Made by a program: the position numbers and the translations under genes. Of a stretch of DNA of 64,000 nucleotides, positions 5,103 through 28,588 are shown in pieces. How positions within the stretch are numbered: the stretch's first letter is position 1; each line of letters starts with the position of its first letter. The stretch covers positions 1,339 through 65,338 of IMG/VR virus record IMGVR_UViG_3300006092_000329, one strand, 5' to 3'. Origin of the DNA: a virus (Duplodnaviria > Caudoviricetes). Under the pieces are notes generated by a model. That model was not told the origin of the DNA, ran no database searches, and saw nothing but the letters and a program-made list of their open reading frames with translations.

Positions 5103-6410
5103 TCAGACCTTCGCCGCCGAGTCGATCACGAACACGCCGAGATCGGTCGGCTCCGTGTTGCCGTTGCCGTCCGGCACGCCGAACCGGACCTTCGCCTTGC
5201 CGTTCATCATCTGGCCGAGCGCCTCGAAGTTGCGGTCGAAGTTGTAGGTCCGCTCGCGGTAGTCGGCGTAGAAGTCCGAACCCTGCGACTTCCCGTAGAC
5301 GTTGGCGAGAGCCTGCGCGCCCAGAAGCAGGGAGCGTTCGACGCACGACGTTGCCGCCAGACCGGCGTTGATGGCCTGATTGGACTCGGTGGCCGTGTAG
5401 CGGTTGGCGACCAGAACGACCTTCGTGTTCTCGGACGCCACCCAGCGGATCGAGCGGTTGATCTTCTTCACGAGGATGCCGTTCCACATCCCAACCTCGC
5501 CACGGAACAGCGGCGACTTGCTGCCGTACTGCGCCCGCTGCCATGCGTACTGCTGGAACGCACGCAGGTTGTTGTTGGCGGTCGCGTCGGTGATCAGCGC
5601 CGAGTACGCCGAGGGCGAAACGAGCAGCAGGTAGAGCGGCTCGTCGTTCGCGGCGGGGTCGTCCACGATCTTGATCGGCTGGAGCGGCAGGTCCATCAGG
5701 TCGATGATGCGGCGCAGTTCGTCCAGATGCGACAGCTTCAGGGTGTCCGAAGCGGTGATCGAGCCGAGTTGCAGACCGCCCTGCACGAAGCTGGAACCGG
5801 ACACGACGTAGTGGCGGTTGTAGGTCGGAGCCTGCACCGCGTTCACCATCACGTCCGAGAACTGCGTGTTCGCGGTCGTGCCGGTGTTGGTCGTGAACTG
5901 GAGTGGCACCACCCAATCCATGCCCGCCTGCGTGCCGCGACCACCGGCCAGCGCCACGAGCATCTGCTGCGTGTCGAGACGGGGGAAGTAGCCCATCAGG
6001 TTCGCCATGGCGATGCCGCGCAGTTGCGTCTTGGTGCGCTGCTGCGCCATCGCGCCGCCCGCGTCGATTGCCTTGGAAAGCAGATCGATACGTGCGTTCA
6101 TGCTGGACCACGTGAGCTTGTCGCCCTTGCCTTCGGCGTTCACGTCGCCCACCAGCGGGAAGCCGGTGATCGTGTTGAACAGGTCCATGGACACCTGATC
6201 GCCGACCGTCTTGGACAGGTCGGTGACGCGGACCACGGGGTAGTCCGGGGCGGTCTGGCCCTTCAGCTTGGATTCGACTTCGCTCTGCTGCGGCGCGGGG
6301 CCGGTGAGGTTGTTGCCGAGGGTGGCCGCACGGAGGTTGTAGGTGAACAGCGCGACCGAGAACTGCTTGACTGCAAGTACCGACCCTGCCGGTACGGAAG
6401 TGGTTGACAT
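5103..6410 (-). CDS. Major capsid protein, N4-gp56-like (DUF4043-type)
   Basis: 435 aa; DLSKTVGDQVS, EGKGDKL and LFRGEVGMWNGILV motifs; follows scaffold; AAGGAG RBS. Confidence 0.9.
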   Translation of the reverse strand: MSTTSVPAGSVLAVKQFSVALFTYNLRAATLGNNLTGPAPQQSEVESKLKGQTAPDYPVVRVTDLSKTVGDQVSMDLFNTITGFPLVGDVNAEGKGDKLTWSSMNARIDLLSKAIDAGGAMAQQRTKTQLRGIAMANLMGYFPRLDTQQMLVALAGGRGTQAGMDWVVPLQFTTNTGTTANTQFSDVMVNAVQAPTYNRHYVVSGSSFVQGGLQLGSITASDTLKLSHLDELRRIIDLMDLPLQPIKIVDDPAANDEPLYLLLVSPSAYSALITDATANNNLRAFQQYAWQRAQYGSKSPLFRGEVGMWNGILVKKINRSIRWVASENTKVVLVANRYTATESNQAINAGLAATSCVERSLLLGAQALANVYGKSQGSDFYADYRERTYNFDRNFEALGQMMNGKAKVRFGVPDGNGNTEPTDLGVFVIDSAAKV

Positions 6411-11207: not shown

Positions 11208-13592
11208 TTACTCCTTGGCTGACTTCTTCGATTGTTGAACCTGCTTGGTGAGGGCTTCGAGCTTCTTCTCGACCGTCGCCATCATCTTCTGCGCCGTCTC
11301 GTTGCGGTCCTTCTCCAGTTGCGCGACCTTCACGTCACGCGCCGCCTCGATCTCGGCGATCTCCTTCTGGATCATGGCGACCTCCCGCTCCGTGTCCGCC
11401 TTCGTGAGCACGGTGTCCGCCTGCTGGCGCACCTTCGCCATCTGCTCGCGGAGTTGCTGCTCACGCAGGGCGGAGGAGTTGCGCAGGGTCATGATCTCGA
11501 CGGTCATGCTGTCGATCTGCTCCTTCGCCTCCTCGCGTGCGTCGGCGATGGCCTTCTGCGCCTCGGCTTGATGGCCTGCCAGATCGGGGTTGCTCGCGGC
11601 CTCCGCCCTGATCTTCTCCGCCTCGGCGTTGATCTTGTTGACCTCCGCCTGCCGCTTCTGGAGTTCGGCGATTGCCATGGCCTTGTTGTACTGCTTCAAC
11701 TCCTCCTGCTCTTGCATGGCCTGCTGCATGGCCTGCGCCTCCTCGGGGGAGGAGGGTTCGACCTGTTGCCCGAGCGCCTTGCGGATCGCGTTCGCCATCT
11801 GCTTGCGCTGCTGCAAGTCGGACGCCTCCATCCAGTACGGGGCGATGGCGGCTTGCAGTTGCGGCGGCATGCCCTTCATGACCTCGGACAGCATGGTGAA
11901 CTGCTGCGCCCTGTAGGACGGCGAGGACGGCACATCCTCCAGAGCGACTCGCACCTTCGTGGATGCCACGTCGTTGACGATGATCTGCTGCCCGGTGGAG
12001 GGGTCGCGCATGACCGTGTTCAGGCTGATGGTCTTGCGCGTGCCGCTCATGTCCGTCTGGACCGTGACTTGCTGGCCGATCAAGTCCTGCCTGATCAGGG
12101 CCATGAGCTTCTCGCCGACTGCCCTACGGGCAAAGCGATAGTTGTCGTTGATCTCCGCCAGAGCGGCGGTGCCCTGCTCCACCAGAGACGCGATGGCCTG
12201 CCCGGACTGCCCGGACTTGCCCTCCCCGAGCATGGCTTGGAACACGCCCACGACCTCCTGAATGGAGTGCTTCGCCTCCATCAAGACCTCGAACTGCTCC
12301 TTCGCCATGCCGATGTTGTCATCGATCTGGAACCCGTCCTTGTTCTGGCGGGCCTTGTTCAGCATGATCGCCGCGTCCGGGCGACCGATCTCCTGCATGA
12401 CTGTGGCCCAATCGTTCAGTTGCAGATCGATGGCGTCACTGTCGGCAATCAGGCGTTTCGCCCCGAGGAGCCACATCATCTTCTGGCGGCGGGCGTTGAC
12501 CTCATCCTGCGGGCTGATCATCGAGCGGATCAGACCGTAGGGCACCCCGGTGCGGTCCTCGCGGTATCCCCAGAAGGGGACGTAGGGCGTGCCATCGTCG
12601 GAGCAGGCGCAGTCGTGAACCTTGTGCGGGCCTGCCCAGATGCTCATGCGCATCTTGGCGTACACGGCTTCGCTGACGCGGGCCGTGCCCATGGACAGGG
12701 CTTGCATGTGCAGGGGGTTGCGCGGGTTCAGTTCCGCCACATCGCCATTGATGAACGAGATGACGTTGCCCCGCTGCCAGCGGCGATACCAGACCTCGTA
12801 GAAGCAAATGCGCCTGCGGTCCATCTGACGCCACTGCTCGAAGTCCTCGATGTCCAAGCCCCGCTCGAACTCGAAGGACTGGTTCAGGGTCGTGCCCATC
12901 ACGGAGCGGCGCAGGGCGTAGCGGTACGGATCACCCACGGCATCGCGCAGGATGTCTTGATGATCGGGGAAGTATGCCGCGCCTTGATCCACGTCATACC
13001 ACCGCTTGCGCAGGAGGAAGCGCGACTTCTTCAGGTCGGGGGACTGATCGCGCCAGTCCCAATAGACCTCGCGGCGATGGATCGACTCGACACGGTACGG
13101 GTACTCGAAGGGGTTCGCGCTCCGGCTGACCTCGACCCATCCCATCCCGGCCTTGATCTGCCCCGCGTAGCCGTCCGCGCACGCCCTGTCCGCACGCGAC
13201 TGCCGCTCCGTCTCGATCATCTTCGCCGAGAGTGCCTCCGCGACCGGCTGATTCTGCTGGTCGTCGGCAGTCACGCGCCAGTCCGTGCGAGTCTTGGCCT
13301 CCATCCCGAGGACCACATTGATGACCGGGGCGATCACATTGTTGATCAGCGGCCCCATGCCCTTGTTCTCCAGCAGGGCGAGGGTCTCGGCGTCAAGCTG
13401 ATTGCCGTCGTAGTAATCGACGGCCTTGTCCGCCTCATTGCGCCATGAGGGTTGCCAGCGAAGCTCGCTCAGGTAGTTGTGGAACTCCTGCGGCTGGAGA
13501 GTGAGAGGGTCTCCGTAGAGTCCCTGTGTCTGACGCTGAATGCGCGAGATCGCCGAGTCGTCATACACCATGAAGTCTTGCGGGCTACCCAT
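11208..13592 (-). CDS. Portal protein (P22/Bcep22-like)
   Basis: 794 aa; DYYDGNQL, NVVLGMEAKTRTDWRV, QDEVNARRQK motifs; long C-terminal coiled-coil barrel. Confidence 0.9.
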   Translation of the reverse strand: MGSPQDFMVYDDSAISRIQRQTQGLYGDPLTLQPQEFHNYLSELRWQPSWRNEADKAVDYYDGNQLDAETLALLENKGMGPLINNVIAPVINVVLGMEAKTRTDWRVTADDQQNQPVAEALSAKMIETERQSRADRACADGYAGQIKAGMGWVEVSRSANPFEYPYRVESIHRREVYWDWRDQSPDLKKSRFLLRKRWYDVDQGAAYFPDHQDILRDAVGDPYRYALRRSVMGTTLNQSFEFERGLDIEDFEQWRQMDRRRICFYEVWYRRWQRGNVISFINGDVAELNPRNPLHMQALSMGTARVSEAVYAKMRMSIWAGPHKVHDCACSDDGTPYVPFWGYREDRTGVPYGLIRSMISPQDEVNARRQKMMWLLGAKRLIADSDAIDLQLNDWATVMQEIGRPDAAIMLNKARQNKDGFQIDDNIGMAKEQFEVLMEAKHSIQEVVGVFQAMLGEGKSGQSGQAIASLVEQGTAALAEINDNYRFARRAVGEKLMALIRQDLIGQQVTVQTDMSGTRKTISLNTVMRDPSTGQQIIVNDVASTKVRVALEDVPSSPSYRAQQFTMLSEVMKGMPPQLQAAIAPYWMEASDLQQRKQMANAIRKALGQQVEPSSPEEAQAMQQAMQEQEELKQYNKAMAIAELQKRQAEVNKINAEAEKIRAEAASNPDLAGHQAEAQKAIADAREEAKEQIDSMTVEIMTLRNSSALREQQLREQMAKVRQQADTVLTKADTEREVAMIQKEIAEIEAARDVKVAQLEKDRNETAQKMMATVEKKLEALTKQVQQSKKSAKE

Positions 13593-14999: not shown

Positions 15000-16487
15000 T
15001 CAGGCCGCTCGCCATGAGGCGCGGGTGCGGCCACGGATGGCGGCTACCTGATTCGAGGGTGCCAGAGCGGCGAAGCGGCGCATCATCCAGCCGTAGCGCG
15101 AGGAGTCGAGGTAGTCGTCCATCTCCTTGACGATGATCCCGTCCTTGCGGTGATACAGGCGGAACTCCTCGATCCATGGGCCACAGGTCGAGAAGACCTT
15201 GAAAGTCCCTCCGATCATCGAGGCGAGCATCTGACCCACTGAGCCTTCGAGACTCACGCGGCTGGTGGGCGTGTTCTCCGCCTTGCCTCCGGGGTTCTCC
15301 GGCAGCGTGGCGTGCTCCGCCAGCATGTTGATGCCTTCGTCCCGGTATTGCTTCGCCAGAGCAGGGCCAGCGGCGGTCTCGTTGTTGCCATCCTTGGGCC
15401 ATGCGACGGGAATCCAGTCGCCCTTCGCCCTGATCGCGCTCGCGTGTACGGCGACTGGTTGCCGCTTCGCTCCGTGAGTCGCATAGAGGTACGTGGTGTC
15501 GGTGTCTCTGTCGAGAGCCAACCACGAGACGGCGGTCGGGTGATCGAATCCGAAGTCGATTCCAGCCAGTCGCGGCCAGTGCGCGGGCAACTCGAACGGC
15601 TGGACTGCGATCTGCTGCTCCGGAATGGGAAACACAGCACCAGAGCCAAGCACCGGAATCCCTCTCGCCTTCGCGTCCCTCAAGTGCTCCGGATAGCTCT
15701 CCTCGATCTCCTTCCTGCGCTCCTCCGAGTAGTGCTCCGCGTCCTCAAGCGTCATCGAGACGATGATGGTTCCGACCTTCTTGTCCACCATGAACCGCTT
15801 GACCACAAGGCTCATGCCTTGGAGCGGGGTGAACGTCATCAGCATGATGGCGTCTTCCTTGGCCTGAAGACGGGTCAGGAACTCGATGTACACATCCTCG
15901 GGCGGCTCCTCGTCGCACCAGCCGAAGTCGAGGGTTTCGCCTTGGAACTTCTCCCGGCCTTGGTTGTAGTTCTTGAACTGGAGGATCGACTCTCCGCTCT
16001 GGATGTCTCCTCCTCCGCCATGGCGCACGATCAGCGTGTCCACTCCATCGGCGACGGAGCGGTTCAGGGTCGGTTGCTCGGCGAAGGCATTCTTCGGGAT
16101 CATCCCGGTGCCCCAAGCGTTCGGACGCCCCAAAAGGATGCGCTGAGGGTTGTCCCGAGTCGCTTCCGCAGTCACGCCAGCGGCCCATCCGGCTACAGGA
16201 CGGTCGAAGACCCTGCCCTTCCACCAGTTCGGGTAGCGCCCGGTCAGGTGCATGGCTACCTCAGCGCCCGCAGCCACGGTCTTCCCGACCTGATTCGCGG
16301 CCATGAGCAGGCGCTCACGGTACTCTGTTCCGAGGCGATGGAACTCGATCTGCTTCCGGTAGGGCTGATAGGTCGCCAGCCCGGATTCCCTGAGCCGCTT
16401 CTCGAAGCCAGCCCGAAGGGCTTTCAACTCATCCCGGTTGAGCTTTTCGAGGTACTCTCGGGCGGCGGATAGGTCGATGACACTCAT
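15000..16487 (-). CDS. terL: Terminase large subunit
   Basis: Walker A AANQVGKT, Walker B WCDEEP, RNase H-like nuclease GIDFGFDHPTA and DDYLDSSRY. Confidence 0.95.
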   Translation of the reverse strand: MSVIDLSAAREYLEKLNRDELKALRAGFEKRLRESGLATYQPYRKQIEFHRLGTEYRERLLMAANQVGKTVAAGAEVAMHLTGRYPNWWKGRVFDRPVAGWAAGVTAEATRDNPQRILLGRPNAWGTGMIPKNAFAEQPTLNRSVADGVDTLIVRHGGGGDIQSGESILQFKNYNQGREKFQGETLDFGWCDEEPPEDVYIEFLTRLQAKEDAIMLMTFTPLQGMSLVVKRFMVDKKVGTIIVSMTLEDAEHYSEERRKEIEESYPEHLRDAKARGIPVLGSGAVFPIPEQQIAVQPFELPAHWPRLAGIDFGFDHPTAVSWLALDRDTDTTYLYATHGAKRQPVAVHASAIRAKGDWIPVAWPKDGNNETAAGPALAKQYRDEGINMLAEHATLPENPGGKAENTPTSRVSLEGSVGQMLASMIGGTFKVFSTCGPWIEEFRLYHRKDGIIVKEMDDYLDSSRYGWMMRRFAALAPSNQVAAIRGRTRASWRAA

Positions 16488-22040: not shown

Positions 22041-22544
22041 CTAGGCGGGAGCCTGATCGCCAGCCGGGGCGTCAGCGGGCGCTTGCGCCGACTGCGCGTC
22101 AGCCGAAGGCTCGCCTGCGGTCGGAGCCGGGGCGGGAGCGTCGGCGGGGCCGGGGCCGGGGCCGTTCGTGCCCTCGGGCACGCTGTCGGTCTTGGGCGCA
22201 GGCTCGGCGGGCGTCTGGAGGAGCTTCAGGGACTCCTCCAGTGCGGCCACGCGGGCGGTGAGAGCGCCGGTCACGTCCTCCGTCTTCGCGGCCTGCCCCT
22301 GCTGGTAGGGCATCCACTGCGCGTAGCCGACCTCGGGCGGCGTCTGCGCCTCGGGATCGCCGTGATAGAGCATCACGTTCTGGACCCCGTAGGGGAACCC
22401 GTTGGCATCGAATGCCGTCAGGTTGATGGTGTTCTCGTCCAGCACGGCGGCGATCACGGCGGCACAGGGCTGACCGGGCATGCGTGCCGTGTTGGTCTGG
22501 GGGATGTAGTGGACCATGCGGCCCACAGTCGGGATGATCTTCAT
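22041..22544 (-). CDS. Hypothetical protein, first gene of late operon
   Basis: 167 aa; PTVGRMVHY...AAVIAAV beta domain, short coiled coil, Pro/Ala tail; GAAGGA RBS. Confidence 0.7.
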   Translation of the reverse strand: MKIIPTVGRMVHYIPQTNTARMPGQPCAAVIAAVLDENTINLTAFDANGFPYGVQNVMLYHGDPEAQTPPEVGYAQWMPYQQGQAAKTEDVTGALTARVAALEESLKLLQTPAEPAPKTDSVPEGTNGPGPGPADAPAPAPTAGEPSADAQSAQAPADAPAGDQAPA

Positions 22545-22764
22545 GGCGATTCCTTCACAGATTGGCTCGCCGCCACTCAGGACCGGCGCTCTGGCAAGCG
22601 CGTGCCGCACATGGCTGAAGGAGGGCCATGGAAGGGTTGCGGCGCGGTCCCGAGGGCAGCGAGAGAGTAATGCCCCGGACCCTCTCCGGAGCAGAGACGC
22701 ACGAGCGTGCGATTCTTGATGCCGACCTGATCATGATTCGGCAGGATGAAGTGTGGACACGGGG

Positions 22765-22793
22765 ATTCTACGCAGCACGCGCCGCGCACGCAA
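22765..22793 (-). promoter_or_regulatory. Putative main late promoter
   Basis: TTGCGT-N17-TAGAAT on minus strand, ~220 nt before first late gene. Confidence 0.55.
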
Positions 22794-22912
22794 CCGCGCC
22801 GTGCTCACGCGCTCGCGCCGCGCCCGCCGCAGCCGCGTGATCTCGTGTGCGCCCTTCGTAGCGCGCGTTGAAAATTTTTTTACTCCGTAGGAGTAACTCG
22901 AAAGGGGGGGGG

Positions 22913-22941
22913 TTGACAAAGTATTCACCGATGGATAAAGT
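22913..22941 (+). promoter_or_regulatory. Strong sigma70-type early promoter
   Basis: TTGACA-N17-TAAAGT with upstream A/T tract. Confidence 0.75.
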
Positions 22942-23138
22942 GGAGGCCAATTTGCAGCACCGAACCACCGGAATCCGGCCAATGCCAAACCCGGTGGACA
23001 CTGCAAAGCGGCGCGACGAGACAGCGCCCTACAAGAGAGTCTGGCGGTCGGACGTTAGTCGATCCCCATGAAGCTGGAGGCATCCAGTGTCGGGAGAGAG
23101 CCGCAAGCTGCGCTGGCAAAAGAGCCAGTCCGCTACCG

Positions 23139-23157
23139 AAAGCCCCTTGGGGCTACG
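23139..23157 (+). repeat. AGCCCC-N2-GGGGCT hairpin motif, copy 1
   Basis: AAAGCCCCTTGGGGCTACG. Confidence 0.8.
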
Positions 23158-23505
23158 GCAAGCGATCACTGTGAAGGTGCGAAGGCAAGGGTGGAGCGTG
23201 AGGCTCCAACGAACCTCGGGGCAAGACCTGCTCGAAACTGCGACTGGCAATCGTGGCGGAGAGCGCAAGGGCGACGGCAGATGCCGCATCCGAGTAAAAG
23301 CCAGTCCGGAGCACCACAATCGATCCGCCTCAAGGTACAGCAGGGACACGGTGCCCTGTCGAACCCATGTACGAATTGGCGGATGTCTTGAGGGCGCTGC
23401 CTCGGCCCGACTGAGCGAACACACGAGTCGCTCTAGGGTGCCGCACACTGAGGCGGCGCAGCGTCCTCAAGCGGTGCAGCAGGCGACCGTGACTGCCTGC
23501 AACTG

Positions 23506-23530
23506 AAAGCCCCGAGGGGCTACGAAAGGA
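23506..23530 (+). repeat. Hairpin motif copy 2 abutting RBS
   Basis: AAAGCCCCGAGGGGCTACGAAAGGA. Confidence 0.8.
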
Positions 23531-23536
23531 AACACC

Positions 23537-23854
23537 ATGTCCAAGAAGACCGCCAAGACCATCCTGTCCGCTGCCGTGGACGCCGCCATCGCCAAGGGTG
23601 CCGAGACCATCGTCGAAATCGACGCCACGATGGCCCGCTTCATCAAGGAAGTGCGCGAACTCGCCGCCAACCCCGGCGTGTTCTGGGGCTGCGAACTCGT
23701 TGCCGAGATGGACGACAACGATCTGGCGAAGATGATCACCGGGGCGCTCACGACGAAGACGGCGATCAAGAAGGTGAAGCGTGCCCTGTATCGCCAGATC
23801 GACCCGTATGGCCGGGTCGCTGAGATCAAGGCCCGCAACGCCGCTGCCGCCTAA
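23537..23854 (+). CDS. Early hypothetical protein
   Basis: 105 aa, AAAGGA RBS, phage-like codon usage. Confidence 0.75.
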   Translation: MSKKTAKTILSAAVDAAIAKGAETIVEIDATMARFIKEVRELAANPGVFWGCELVAEMDDNDLAKMITGALTTKTAIKKVKRALYRQIDPYGRVAEIKARNAAAA

Positions 23855-23938
23855 TCGGCAGATCGCTCAGGACGAACCCCACGGATTGCGCCCTGCGGGG
23901 CGCTCTCCGGGCGGCTTGCCCGGTTCAAGGAGCGTACC

Positions 23939-24235
23939 ATGCCTGACTCGTACCAAGAAGCACAAACCGCAGTGGGGGCCATCTCGGACTTTGCGAATCG
24001 CTGGTCCGGCGCGACTGCCCGCCATTGCTTCGCCACCCGGATGTGCCACGGCACGCACCGGACTCTCCAGCAAGGGTCATTTGCCCTGATGCTGGCCTGC
24101 ATCGATCAGTGGGCGAAAGACGCCGACGCTGGCAACTTCGACCTCCGCAATGAGGAGACGGTCAAGATGGCGAAGCAGATCGTCGAGAGCTTCGGCGAGG
24201 AGTGGAAGTACAAGGTCAACCTGCCGGTCATCTGA
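23939..24235 (+). CDS. Early hypothetical protein
   Basis: 98 aa, AAGGAG RBS. Confidence 0.75.
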   Translation: MPDSYQEAQTAVGAISDFANRWSGATARHCFATRMCHGTHRTLQQGSFALMLACIDQWAKDADAGNFDLRNEETVKMAKQIVESFGEEWKYKVNLPVI

Positions 24236-24245
24236 GGAGGGACTC

Positions 24246-24464
24246 ATGGCTACGTGGCACCAGCAGCAAGCGCAGCGGCGCAACCCTACGCCGCTCTGGG
24301 ACAAGGTTCGCTGGAACCTCGTCACCGATCCTCCGAACGAGATGACGACGATCATGTCGTTCGAGACCAAGGAAGCCGCAGAAGACACGCTCGCCAAGTG
24401 GAAGGCGAACGGTCGCGGCGATCACAGCTACATCCTGCCGCCGTCCGGGAAGTGGCAAGCCTGA
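24246..24464 (+). CDS. Early hypothetical protein
   Basis: 72 aa from ATG 24246, GAGGAG RBS. Confidence 0.65.
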   Translation: MATWHQQQAQRRNPTPLWDKVRWNLVTDPPNEMTTIMSFETKEAAEDTLAKWKANGRGDHSYILPPSGKWQA

Positions 24465-24532
24465 GCGCCGCCCGATGCCCTGCTTGCAGGGTATCGAGAG
24501 TCGCTCCGACTCGAACCTTGAAGGAGGTCAAA

Positions 24533-25225
24533 ATGATCATCGAACGAGAGTTCGTGTACACCGAAAGCGATGAGGACTACGGCGGTGCCGGTTGGGTTCC
24601 TCGCGGGATGGAAAAGGCGAATGCCTTCGAGGCCACCATGGTCGGCCACGATGTCATGGAGCACATCGGCGGCGAATCTGATCGCTACGTCGATGAGTTG
24701 CTCGCTCTCGGCGCTTCCGTCTACGTCCGCACCGAGAACGGCTGGTACTCGATGGGCCGCATGGCCCAGAACATCAACGATACGTGGCAGCATCTCGGCT
24801 CCTCGCTCCTCATGGACGTGTTCCGTGACGCTTGGTACGAGGGCAGGGACATCCGCCACCCCGGACGAACCCGTCCGCTGGACGCCATGCAAGAGTCGGA
24901 GTTCGAGAGGGCAATCGACTATTGCATCAACCTTGCGAAGTCCGAACTCGACTCCGAGGAGCACGAGGAGGGAATGCGCAAGCTCCGCTCCTGCCGCTAC
25001 ACCATGCTCGGCTGGCTCCGCAAGGGCTACCGTAGGGCGGTGAGGCTGTACGGCAGGCACCGTCAGCACAAGGCGCTGGATGCCTTCATCGAAATGGGCG
25101 AGAAGCTCCAGAGGGAGACTCGGGACGAATTCGACCGCTACGAAGGCTATCGCGTCAAGGTGCGCCTCGACACGAAGACCATGAAGACCACCATCATCAC
25201 CGAGGAGGATGAGCATGAAGACTGA
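24533..25225 (+). CDS. Acidic early protein with HDxxEH putative metal site
   Basis: 230 aa from ATG 24533 (AAGGAGG RBS); GHDVMEH...DELLALG. Confidence 0.7.
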   Translation: MIIEREFVYTESDEDYGGAGWVPRGMEKANAFEATMVGHDVMEHIGGESDRYVDELLALGASVYVRTENGWYSMGRMAQNINDTWQHLGSSLLMDVFRDAWYEGRDIRHPGRTRPLDAMQESEFERAIDYCINLAKSELDSEEHEEGMRKLRSCRYTMLGWLRKGYRRAVRLYGRHRQHKALDAFIEMGEKLQRETRDEFDRYEGYRVKVRLDTKTMKTTIITEEDEHED

Positions 25226-25580
25226 CGAACTGAGCGCCTTCACCAAGGGCTACATCGAGTGCCTGCTCTGGTCCGAATGCACCGTCGATAACGGGCTGGA
25301 GGATATGGACATCTCCGACCTGTCCGACGAGACGCTCAAGGCAATCGAGGAGGACTGCAAGTCCTTCGAGGGCGACAACGCCGAAATCTGGCGGGCCGAA
25401 GGCCGCTGGACCGACGAGCAGGCGGGGCACGACTTCCTGCTCACCCGTAACCGTCACGGCGCTGGCTTCTGGGACCGTGGTCACGGCCCCGTGGGCAGGG
25501 CGCTCACCGAGTCGGCGCACCCCTATGGGACGTTCGGCCTGTACCTCGGCGACGACGGCAAACTCTACCACCACAACTAG
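25209..25580 (+). CDS. Conserved-looking early hypothetical protein
   Basis: 123 aa acidic; QAGHDFLLTRNRHGAGFWDRG. Confidence 0.7.
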   Translation: MSMKTDELSAFTKGYIECLLWSECTVDNGLEDMDISDLSDETLKAIEEDCKSFEGDNAEIWRAEGRWTDEQAGHDFLLTRNRHGAGFWDRGHGPVGRALTESAHPYGTFGLYLGDDGKLYHHN

Positions 25581-25589
25581 GAGTCACTC

Positions 25590-25880
25590 ATGGCACGCAA
25601 AGCGAAAGCGAAGCCCGTCACCAAGGAACACAAGGACCGCATCTGGATCGAACTCGAAAGGCCGAAGGGTCTTCCCGAGAAGGATCGGATCGAGTTCTGC
25701 GAGCGGCAGGCGGAACTCGCAACCAAGCTGCTCCACCGTCTCGGCGTCAACAAGGATCAGCGGTTCTACTGGAGCGAGCGCGACCTGTACTACTGCCTCG
25801 GCGGGCCGATGGGCTACCTCGTCCTGACCGACAACGGGCACTGGTTCAACCTGAAGTACCTCGCCACCGGCGAAGCCTGA
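25590..25880 (+). CDS. Early hypothetical protein
   Basis: 96 aa, TAGGAG RBS. Confidence 0.7.
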   Translation: MARKAKAKPVTKEHKDRIWIELERPKGLPEKDRIEFCERQAELATKLLHRLGVNKDQRFYWSERDLYYCLGGPMGYLVLTDNGHWFNLKYLATGEA

Positions 25881-25910
25881 AGACCGCGCCGGACGGATTC
25901 CGGCACATCG

Positions 25911-25933
25911 AAAGCCCCTCGGGGCTACGAAGG
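25911..25933 (+). repeat. Hairpin motif copy 3 abutting RBS
   Basis: AAAGCCCCTCGGGGCTACGAAGG. Confidence 0.8.
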
Positions 25934-25940
25934 AGCAAGC

Positions 25941-26603
25941 ATGAAACCTGAACAACTCCCGTCCTATGGACAGTATTTCGACGGCGGAGAGCGCATTGAC
26001 CTCGGTCACGGCTACTGCGCCAAGGTCGAACTCTGGTACGACGAATGCATGCGTGAGCCGTGGAAGGAGATGGACGGCTGCGTTGTCGGCATCCGCACCG
26101 CCAGCACCAACTACACGGGGCACATCAGCAAGTCGCCGAACGAGCGCATCTTGCACAAGGGCGACCGCAACCAGTGGGATTACGTGTACGACTTCAACGC
26201 CTCTCTCGCCGTCGCACTGAAGGACGGATGGGGATGCCGCGCCGACTTGGAGGGCATGACCAAGAAACAGCGGGCCGTGAAGGCGGTCGAGGAGAACGCC
26301 GACTGGCTCCGCCGCTGGCTCAACAACGAGTGGCACTGGATCGGTTGCACCGTCACCCTGTACCGCACCATCAAGGGCGACGGTCACTTCCGCGTCTTCG
26401 ACAAGGAGCACGAGGTCATGACCGAATCGTGCGGCGGCTTCGAGGATGAGGGCGACTACTGGAAGGAGATGGCCTGCGAACTCATCGGCGATGCCGTCGA
26501 GAACGACATGGAGGAGCGCCGTCAGGCATGGCGGCAAGCTCTTGCCGAAGCCCGCGAGGAGCGGTACTGGAACCAGCGTGACGTGATCACGGAAGGAGTC
26601 TGA
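25941..26603 (+). CDS. Early hypothetical protein
   Basis: 220 aa, Trp/acidic-rich, AAGGAG RBS. Confidence 0.75.
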   Translation: MKPEQLPSYGQYFDGGERIDLGHGYCAKVELWYDECMREPWKEMDGCVVGIRTASTNYTGHISKSPNERILHKGDRNQWDYVYDFNASLAVALKDGWGCRADLEGMTKKQRAVKAVEENADWLRRWLNNEWHWIGCTVTLYRTIKGDGHFRVFDKEHEVMTESCGGFEDEGDYWKEMACELIGDAVENDMEERRQAWRQALAEAREERYWNQRDVITEGV

Positions 26604-26604
26604 C

Positions 26605-27012
26605 ATGCGAATCTCAATCAGCAAGGAGCACGGTCTCAACCCGACGCTTGGCGTCTGCCTCTGGTGCGGCGAGGAGGACGGCACCATCGGCCTCCTCGGG
26701 GCGAACGGCGGCAGGGAAGCGCCGCGTCACTCGATCATCTCTGCGGAGCCGTGCCCGAAGTGCAAAGCCGGGATGGCGCAGGGCATCACGTTGATCGAGG
26801 CGTCGCCCACCTACAAGGAGGGCTACACCAACATCGGCGGGGCGTACATCTCTCGCCGCTGGTTCGTCATCAAGCGTGAGGCGGCTGAACGCATCCTCAC
26901 GGCAGGCCCGGTGCGCGATTCGGTTCTGCGTGTCGGCAAGGGGTATCTCGATACCGAGACGTTCGAGTACCTCCTCAACCAGTTCAAGCAAGCGGAGGAA
27001 GACCATGGCTGA
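26605..27012 (+). CDS. Early Zn-binding hypothetical protein
   Basis: 135 aa; CLWC and CPKC pairs. Confidence 0.7.
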   Translation: MRISISKEHGLNPTLGVCLWCGEEDGTIGLLGANGGREAPRHSIISAEPCPKCKAGMAQGITLIEASPTYKEGYTNIGGAYISRRWFVIKREAAERILTAGPVRDSVLRVGKGYLDTETFEYLLNQFKQAEEDHG

Positions 27013-28136: not shown

Positions 28137-28325
28137 ATGGCAATCACCCACATCACCGTGCGCCGCGAGAAGAACTACGGCATCGAAGTCTTCTACCCGG
28201 AGGACGAAGCCGCCAAGTTGTTCGCCAACGTGGCGCAGACCAGCACGCTGACGCGCCGGACGCTGGACGCCATCAAGCGTTTCGGCATCCAGATCAACGT
28301 GGTTCATCCCACGGTGACGCTGTGA
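28137..28325 (+). CDS. Early hypothetical protein
   Basis: 62 aa, GGAGG RBS. Confidence 0.65.
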   Translation: MAITHITVRREKNYGIEVFYPEDEAAKLFANVAQTSTLTRRTLDAIKRFGIQINVVHPTVTL

Positions 28326-28588
28326 AGCTGAAGCTCTCGCGTCTTCACAAGGACAAGCGGGACGCTTTGAAAGCCCTGTGGTTGGGGCATCAGATTCACT
28401 CCTTCCCCCACGGCACAGGGCAAAACCTGCGGCGGCGTGCCCGCTCCAATGCGGTCGCCGTTGTGTCCAAGCACTCGGATGGTCGGTACGGTCACTCGAT
28501 CTACCACGTCCTTGATCCTCACCCGTACATCAACCATCGACGAAAGCGCGTTCGCTTCATCCCCGTCGAGGTCGATGTCAAATACTGA
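28322..28588 (+). CDS. Basic His/Arg-rich hypothetical protein
   Basis: 88 aa, GTGA overlap. Confidence 0.45.
   Translation: MKLKLSRLHKDKRDALKALWLGHQIHSFPHGTGQNLRRRARSNAVAVVSKHSDGRYGHSIYHVLDPHPYINHRRKRVRFIPVEVDVKY

Follow-up and report, generated by a model that had tools for sequence, protein, structure and literature searches.

What occupies the roughly 600 nucleotides that lie between an early promoter and the first credible early gene of this phage: a discrete non-coding RNA, the front end of an ordinary messenger, or DNA whose role has nothing to do with RNA? The window analyzed here is a stretch of 64,000 nucleotides (GC content 62%) corresponding to bases 1339-65338 of a 65,338 bp phage record, which is uncultivated, rated complete and classed as linear without end repeats, the ends of the record falling within the structural operon. 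The nearest cultured relative is Achromobacter phage CF418P1, with just 45% identity in the portal, and the head genes are of the F116/933W-like podophage lineage and not T7-like. The principal features of the window are as follows.

5103-6407, minus strand: major capsid protein gene
11208-13589, minus strand: portal gene
15000-16484, minus strand: large terminase gene
22542-22912, no strand assigned: divergent control spacer upstream of the early promoter
22913-22941, plus strand: sigma-70-type early promoter, TTGACA-17-TAAAGT (10 of 12 consensus positions matched)
22948-23536, plus strand: proposed untranslated leader of the early operon, 589 nt
23526-23530, plus strand: ribosome-binding site AAGGA
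23537-23854, plus strand: first early gene, 105 aa

The leader sits where the late (minus strand) and early (plus strand) operons diverge, and non-coding DNA spans about 1 kb (~22542-23536) exactly at this junction. The plus strand early and middle genes begin at 23537 and include a MoxR-type ATPase with a vWA partner, RecT, ThyX and a ParB-like protein, with a DnaB helicase encoded in an intervening minus-strand block. There is no RNA polymerase among the ~30 predicted proteins scanned, and the host polymerase is therefore the likely transcriber. An N4-like reading, with a giant virion RNA polymerase and hairpin promoters, was prompted by a gene for a 3490-aa protein and dropped, as the product is a polyvalent protein with InPase, LPD37 and ART domains.

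Strains of the same phage are available for comparison as seven contigs that are 100% identical across the leader (L107-L113), a 55-kb contig with 20 leader substitutions (L114), and contigs from four further runs, of which X9 and X10 are of the L114 type and X7 represents a third haplotype. Within the control spacer there is a GC-rich stretch (about 70%) with an imperfect 36-nt tandem repeat (22775-22846), which holds most of the differences between the window and L107-L113, followed by an A4T7 tract (22872-82), a palindrome TTACTCC-GT-AGGAGTAA (22881-97) containing a GAGTAACTC site (22891-99), and, just before the -35 element, a run of G residues (22903-11) that counts nine (G9) in the window but seven (G7) in every other strain. 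The palindrome GAGTNACTC is present in 17 copies in the window, compared with about one expected, a number reached in none of 100 shuffles. One copy (22891-22899) is 14 nt upstream of the early -35 within the larger TTACTCC-GT-AGGAGTAA palindrome, and further copies lie between ribosome-binding sites and start codons (e.g. at 25581); a regulator may bind it, or it may be a site of modification.

An earlier reading made from the sequence alone (the sequence-only reading) placed a TTGACA/TAAAGT promoter directly upstream of the non-coding stretch, and a host-type, conserved promoter is indeed present at 22913-41. It heads the plus strand operon, and we infer that transcription starts near 22948. 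In L114 the -35 TTGACA is retained, about half of the spacer is altered, and the -10 is AATAAT at 16 nt; that the spacer is rewritten and yet TTGACA is kept and AATAAT formed supports a working promoter. Near-consensus promoters are also carried at the equivalent divergent junctions of two related genomes, G001 (11 of 12 positions) and G003 (12 of 12). The further suggestion that this is the strongest early promoter is not demonstrated; three other sites in the window score an equal 10 of 12. The segment from 22920 to 22945 is a hotspot of substitution in L114, X9 and X10, with ~13 changes plus indels in 26 nt, and the promoter allele reassorts independently of the allele of a hairpin at 23230-64 described below, X7 having a mixed combination.

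The absence of a credible gene before 23537 is well supported. Codon-position GC is flat along the leader (0.55-0.70), compared with a GC3 of 0.8-0.9 and a GC2 of about 0.4 for genes here, and two open reading frames require consideration.

23087-23506: ORF139, the longest open reading frame (139 codons), with a GTG start 6 nt after GGAGG
23068-23391: ORF107

It is very improbable that either encodes an unannotated protein. ORF139 stays open in L114 and has the ribosome-binding-like GGAGG ahead of its GTG, but that GGAGG is inside a hairpin stem, the GC3 of 0.67 and GC2 of 0.59 are not those of the real genes, there are no homologues among 1.84 billion protein representatives, and 16 of the 19 codons of this frame that change between strains do so non-synonymously. 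Whichever of the six frames is considered, most of the codon changes between strains are non-synonymous. ORF107 has no homologue in phage genomes. The leader is composed of 24.6% A, 29.9% C, 32.6% G and 12.9% U, and with so little T in the DNA stop codons are rare and long open frames are expected by chance. For purposes of annotation, ORF139 and ORF107 should not be called genes.

The fraction of U is at the 5.6th percentile of sense-strand coding windows, the C/G ratio is 1 or less along most of the leader, and the sole UUU is at +4. A consensus scan of the plus strand detects neither a terminator-like site nor a U-tract in the interval from the promoter to the ATG at 23537, and no intrinsic-terminator-like site from 22948 to 27000. 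The transcript would thus continue into the early genes, and the RNA is a 5′ leader rather than the discrete ~600-nt species that had been envisaged. We favor, with a probability of about 0.5, the interpretation that the host polymerase transcribes this stretch as a long 5′ untranslated leader, rich in hairpins, for the early operon. The 105-aa product of the gene that it precedes falls in a single cluster with no family and no homologue beyond this phage species.

The leader had been described as densely structured, and how far this is so depends on what it is compared with. The 589-nt sense RNA has a minimum free energy of -256.4 kcal/mol, a value that none of 100 dinucleotide shuffles attains (z -4.2), and the antisense strand is at z -2.2 by the same measure. 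Against 320 native 589-nt windows of the same genome, regressed on GC, the leader is modest, being 1.0 SD low and at the 15th percentile. All seven 150-nt windows of the leader are negative (-0.6 to -3.6, mean z -1.59), compared with a mean z of -0.44 (SD 1.25) for 86 windows of the early-operon background (Mann-Whitney p 0.006, with overlapping windows), and 6% of consecutive seven-window background runs fold as low as the leader. Among the leader windows only 23325-23474 stands out (z -3.6). Mostly coding stretches at 24225-24600 and 28275-28424 (a short intergenic spacer included) have z of -3.0 to -3.7, matching the leader's best. The leader is therefore better folded than shuffles and is structured moderately, not exceptionally.

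All of the helices listed in the sequence-only reading are present at the positions it gave, and together with the larger domains and one hairpin absent from that list they are arranged along the plus strand as follows.

22951-23007: 57-nt compound hairpin at the 5′ end, starting at about +4
23074-87: hairpin CTGGA-GGCA-TCCAG
23113-28: hairpin CTGGC/GCCAG
23112-23157: module M1, the variable hairpin CTGGC/GCCAG and then copy 1 of a repeated hairpin
23230-23264: hypervariable hairpin, found by RNAalifold on two alleles, unguided
23242-48/23300-06: helix GACTGGC/GCCAGTC
23322-23471: best-folding part of the leader (150-nt window z -3.6)
23479-500: hairpin GCAGGC/GCCTGC
23479-23524: module M2, the variable hairpin GCAGGC/GCCTGC and then copy 2 of the repeated hairpin (23506-23523)

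The compound hairpin has an outer helix of 7 bp (TTTGCAG 22951-57 with CTGCAAA 23001-07) around a second helix of 7 bp (CCACCGG 22965-71 with CCGGTGG 22991-97), with a small GGC/GCC hairpin inside; the L114 change of G to A at 22971 opens the innermost pair. The best-folding part consists of a hairpin domain (23322-84) and then a 14-bp stem (23387-400/23458-71) that includes one G-U pair, encloses two small hairpins and is the longest duplex of the leader. A second possible partner for the CTTGAGG at 23387-93 is the CCTCAAG at 23328-34, and both CCTCAAG copies as well as CTTGAGG are invariant among strains. The pseudoknot or conformational switch suggested by the sequence-only reading would rest on this competition.

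The repeated hairpin has the form AAAGCCCC-NN-GGGGCTAC, and the two copies that had been noted in the leader are exact (at 23139 and 23506). There are five copies in all, each on the plus strand and each with a different loop (TT, GA, TC, CC or AA) within CCCC..GGGG. Four of the five (23506, 25911, 29582 and 30698) are a few nucleotides before a ribosome-binding site, and other early intergenic spacers likewise carry two hairpins ahead of the ribosome-binding site. M1 and M2 are 72% identical over 46 nt, and there is no ribosome-binding site after M1. The third copy (window 25881-25940) is missing in L114 (5990-6086) exactly where the downstream gene is swapped for an unrelated one, with the cassette breakpoint just after GAAGACCGCGCCG. 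Loss of this copy where the gene is replaced indicates that the repeated hairpin travels with gene cassettes, and it seems to belong to their 5′ boundary. Elsewhere in the early operon, the region of a 230-aa early gene (PHROG 7111; 24400-25250) is only 46-61% identical to L114, with flanks that are 92-100% identical, and L114 has an extra gene of ~550 nt in this region, a cassette-like mosaicism.

The leader does not correspond to a known RNA family. None of the 4227 models of Rfam 15 matches anywhere in the window at gathering thresholds, and with E values up to 10 the segment 22500-23700 yields just chance-level matches to mir-2290 (E 2.5) and to PhotoRC-I on the minus strand (E 2.9). The Rfam families of CRISPR direct repeats, of interest because RNA anti-CRISPRs consist of solitary repeat-like units, likewise find nothing, either in the window or at E up to 10 in the same segment. 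A collection of homologues from which covariation might be measured had been proposed, and nothing was recovered outside three near-identical strains. The leader DNA has no blastn similarity in 50,697 phage records, a scan of IMG/VR with leader motifs gives no homologue, comparison with five related genomes of 64-66 kb (capsid identity 52-66%) gives none by DNA or protein search, and a motif scan of JGI metagenome contigs gives 68 single matches, all unrelated. Nor do the flanking proteins have relatives that bring a homologous leader with them: a 231-aa protein leads only to a non-syntenic contig, the close relatives of a 166-aa protein are the same strains only, and the relatives of p189 in IMG/VR are not syntenic. 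None of the early proteins matches any Pfam family.

Comparison of strains gives no covariation in support of the whole-leader fold, and lack of covariation is one of the outcomes that the sequence-only reading had named as counting against it; for most of the fold this outcome holds. In the minimum free energy structure, 11 of the 20 L114 substitutions fall in paired bases; eight break the pair, three are one-sided changes that keep it, and none is compensatory. Most of the predicted fold is thus unsupported. Several of the listed helices are broken in L114. The helix at 23242-48/23300-06 takes two breaks, a CAGGG/CCCTG hairpin has a mid-stem break at 23343, and two other helices lose an end pair.

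One hairpin behaves differently. Thirteen of the 20 L114 substitutions are packed into 41 nt (23229-23269), where the 23230-64 hairpin has an outer stem (23230-33/23261-64), an inner stem (23238-43/23251-56), a 4x4 purine-rich internal loop between them and a 7-nt terminal loop. All 10 of its pairs are kept through the 13 substitutions; when 13 matched substitutions are placed at random, an equally good score is reached in only 3.45% of 2000 trials. X7 has the promoter allele of the window, the L114-type allele at 23235-62 and its own changes at 23231-33 (its allele was rebuilt from a table that hides some single-run differences), and with this rebuilt haplotype included 30 of 30 cells are paired across three haplotypes, compared with 27-60% for slid controls. 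Two pairs are altered at both bases, one going from C-G to U-A and the other, through U-G among the three haplotypes, from U-A to C-G. In the internal loop, opposed A.G is also exchanged for G.A. The local folding energy is ordinary (z about 0), and the hairpin competes with the 23242-48/23300-06 helix. It is the only hairpin of the leader with comparative support, and the three haplotypes are suggestive, though not conclusive, that this hairpin at least is under structural constraint. Away from the two hotspots, identity of the leader to L114 is 98-100%, compared with 84-97% for the flanking genes; 23800-24300 is as identical to L114 as the leader is, and the high identity may reflect a recently shared recombination block.

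Compared by sequence, the two relatives show that the layout of promoter plus leader recurs in this group and that it is not universal. G001, with a capsid 66% identical, has the same arrangement, with a promoter followed by an 833-nt ORF-poor leader and a 109-aa first gene, within a junction containing about 1.4 kb of non-coding DNA. Its leader has 11.5% U, is weakly better folded than shuffles (z -1.95), has a hairpin at +1, and ends in the same ACGAAAGGAA context as that before the first gene of the window. The two leaders share no sequence similarity and the two first proteins are not detectably related. At the G001 junction a pair of near-consensus sigma-70 promoters is set back to back with some 100 bp between them (contig coordinates L117:15884-16451, equivalent to G001:35884-36451), and a tRNA-Gly(TCC) gene (L117:16280-16354) lies in the 400-nt leader on the late-operon side. 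G003 has a perfect TTGACA-16-TATAAT promoter with a leader of only about 310 nt before a small ORF, which the GC3 filter had missed; this ORF (in the region G003:15100-15714, minus strand) has a good ribosome-binding site and a signal-peptide-like N-terminus. With the G001 leader weakly folded and that of G003 only ~310 nt, a long structured leader is not universal in the group.

How might such a leader work? In the leader interpretation, host RNA polymerase would start at the 22913-41 promoter and transcribe 589 non-coding nucleotides before running directly on into the first early gene. The RNA would be a string of local stem-loops, with the compound hairpin at its 5′ end, the two modules, a fast-evolving hairpin, and a 150-nt domain before M2. 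Stabilizing and anti-Rho roles can be proposed from established mRNA decay and Rho biology, and it is most likely that the structure and the U-poor composition with G at least equal to C would allow a long RNA free of ribosomes to persist: the 5′ hairpin could protect against decay that depends on the 5′ end, the scarcity of single-stranded A/U sites could limit cleavage by RNase E, and the lack of a C-rich unstructured tract could limit the loading of Rho. M2, beside the start codon, probably either fixes the 5′ end of a processed mRNA or keeps the ribosome-binding site accessible. Neither the presence of M1 without a gene nor the hypervariability of one hairpin is explained by these roles.

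There are alternative interpretations. The leader, or a piece cut from it, could be a functional structured RNA, acting in cis as a processive antiterminator or switch. It could also act in trans on a phage or host RNA-binding factor, as its decoy or specificity determinant, and the hypervariable hairpin would then be the recognition element. M1 and M2 could then be processing sites that release an RNA of ~350 nt, either CCTCAAG copy can pair with the single CTTGAGG as a switch might, and the pairing at 23230-64 survives 13 changes in alleles that reassort independently of those of the promoter; better folding of the sense than the antisense strand and greater conservation than that of the flanking genes are also in keeping with this. 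We nonetheless consider it unlikely, as neither Rfam (to E 10) nor the 50,697 phage records, IMG/VR, the five related genomes and the JGI metagenomes provide a family or a homologue, a covariance model of the 23230-64 hairpin finds no further match in the window or in three related genomes, there is no plus strand terminator-like site as far as 27000 for an antiterminator to override, and most of the predicted helices are not kept in L114, where the high identity is perhaps just that of a shared block extending through 23800-24300. More doubtful is the specific proposal of a new lineage-specific RNA, either processed to ~350 nt between the modules or using the 23230-64 hairpin for recognition, that would be a cis regulator or a decoy or specificity determinant and whose alleles would define functionally distinct strains.

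Alternatively, the block could be a mostly neutral relic of early gene cassettes that were lost apart from their boundary modules (hairpin plus ribosome-binding site), and it would then serve only to join promoter to gene. In favor of this, M1 is a copy of a module normally found ahead of a gene and yet has no gene after it, and the repeated hairpin moves with cassettes. The modest excess of structure over background and the mostly pair-breaking stem substitutions are also compatible with this view. It is harder to reconcile with the lack of leftover codon periodicity or protein similarity, with a leader better conserved in L114 than the neighboring genes, with compensatory change in the 23230-64 hairpin, and with an extreme depletion of U that is common to the unrelated G001 leader and looks selected, and we judge it improbable. 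Slightly more improbable is a DNA-level element with incidental hairpins, either the region of the physical genome ends or packaging site (early promoters being carried at the leading genome end in some phages) or a replication origin. This would account for about 1 kb of non-coding DNA exactly where the operons diverge, for the about 1.4 kb at the same junction in G001, and for strain differences in the G-run and the GC-rich tandem repeat just upstream. Within 22948-23536, however, there are no iterons and no AT-rich unwinding element, the only turn of cumulative GC skew there is the one that accompanies the switch of gene strand, and strand-specific features point to RNA (a U-poor sense strand that folds better than its complement, and hairpin copies in one orientation).

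If the stretch is only a stabilized 5′ UTR then it is ordinary, though unusually long and depleted in U; if the leader or its hypervariable hairpin is a regulatory RNA it would matter more. Long early leaders with unrelated sequences recur in this group of uncultured wastewater phages. To our knowledge, fast sequence change with pairing kept has rarely been documented in phage non-coding RNA, and patches of this kind could mark a specificity determinant in immunity, antitermination or evasion of defence.

Several known systems invite comparison. In lambdoid nut sites and in HK022, leader RNA hairpins are found immediately downstream of an early promoter, as is the compound hairpin here; in HK022 the put RNAs (putL and putR) place a pair of neighboring stem-loops, about 70 nt in all, directly behind the promoter. 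The 57-nt compound hairpin from +4, set against put by description, has no Rfam match. The repeated hairpin differs from both nut and put in occurring five times, mostly right before ribosome-binding sites, and its variable loop of 2-4 nt is unlike the GNRA-like pentaloop of lambda boxB. A candidate boxA (CGCTCTTA-like), CGCTCTA at 23430-36, matches at 7 of 8 positions inside the 14-bp-stem domain, with a chance rate roughly estimated at a few percent. Lambda boxB is recognized by an arginine-rich N protein, and a lambda-type nut site is not supported here: the loops of the repeated hairpin are TT, GA, TC, CC and AA, there is no Rfam match, no N-like protein is found among the early proteins scanned, and the first gene product has no Arg-rich N-terminus. 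The put-like antitermination RNA suggested by the sequence-only reading gains no support, there being no downstream intrinsic terminator (plus strand to 27000) to override. Its other candidate, a decoy that sponges a protein, fares no better. The leader has 11 GGA motifs with about 15 expected (a rough count), no enrichment, and a CsrA/RsmA sponge was rejected.

Long-read transcriptomics of Pseudomonas phages such as LUZ7 has found non-coding transcripts of less than 250 nt whose function is not known, some of which are perhaps processed from longer precursors; these were seen experimentally, and in LUZ7 they are late and intergenic (PMC9163698). RNAs of the LUZ7 type are observed as transcripts, whereas the leader here is known from its sequence.

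Other parallels are found among messenger leaders. Bacterial mRNAs can be stabilized by stem-loops at the 5′ end, as in the ompA leader (about 130 nt). The likeness lies in a hairpin a few nucleotides from the 5′ end and a second hairpin close upstream of the ribosome-binding site, although the present leader is far longer at 589 nt, has many more hairpins, and is of an unusual, U-poor composition. The early leader of coliphage T7, which runs from promoters A1-A3 to gene 0.3 with the RNase III site R0.3, offers a parallel of layout and not of sequence. In both phages several hundred nucleotides that are not translated separate the first early gene from a host-type promoter, structure is found shortly before the first ribosome-binding site, and the early intercistronic spacers contain hairpins. 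They differ in that the early operon here diverges from the late genes, that the longest stem here measures 14 bp, with no evident long duplex of the RNase III type, and that the T7 leader is at the leading end of a linear genome with terminal repeats, whereas this one is known from the divergent junction of the record. The leader described here is a new example, without a family, of a known kind of feature, the long leader of an early mRNA.
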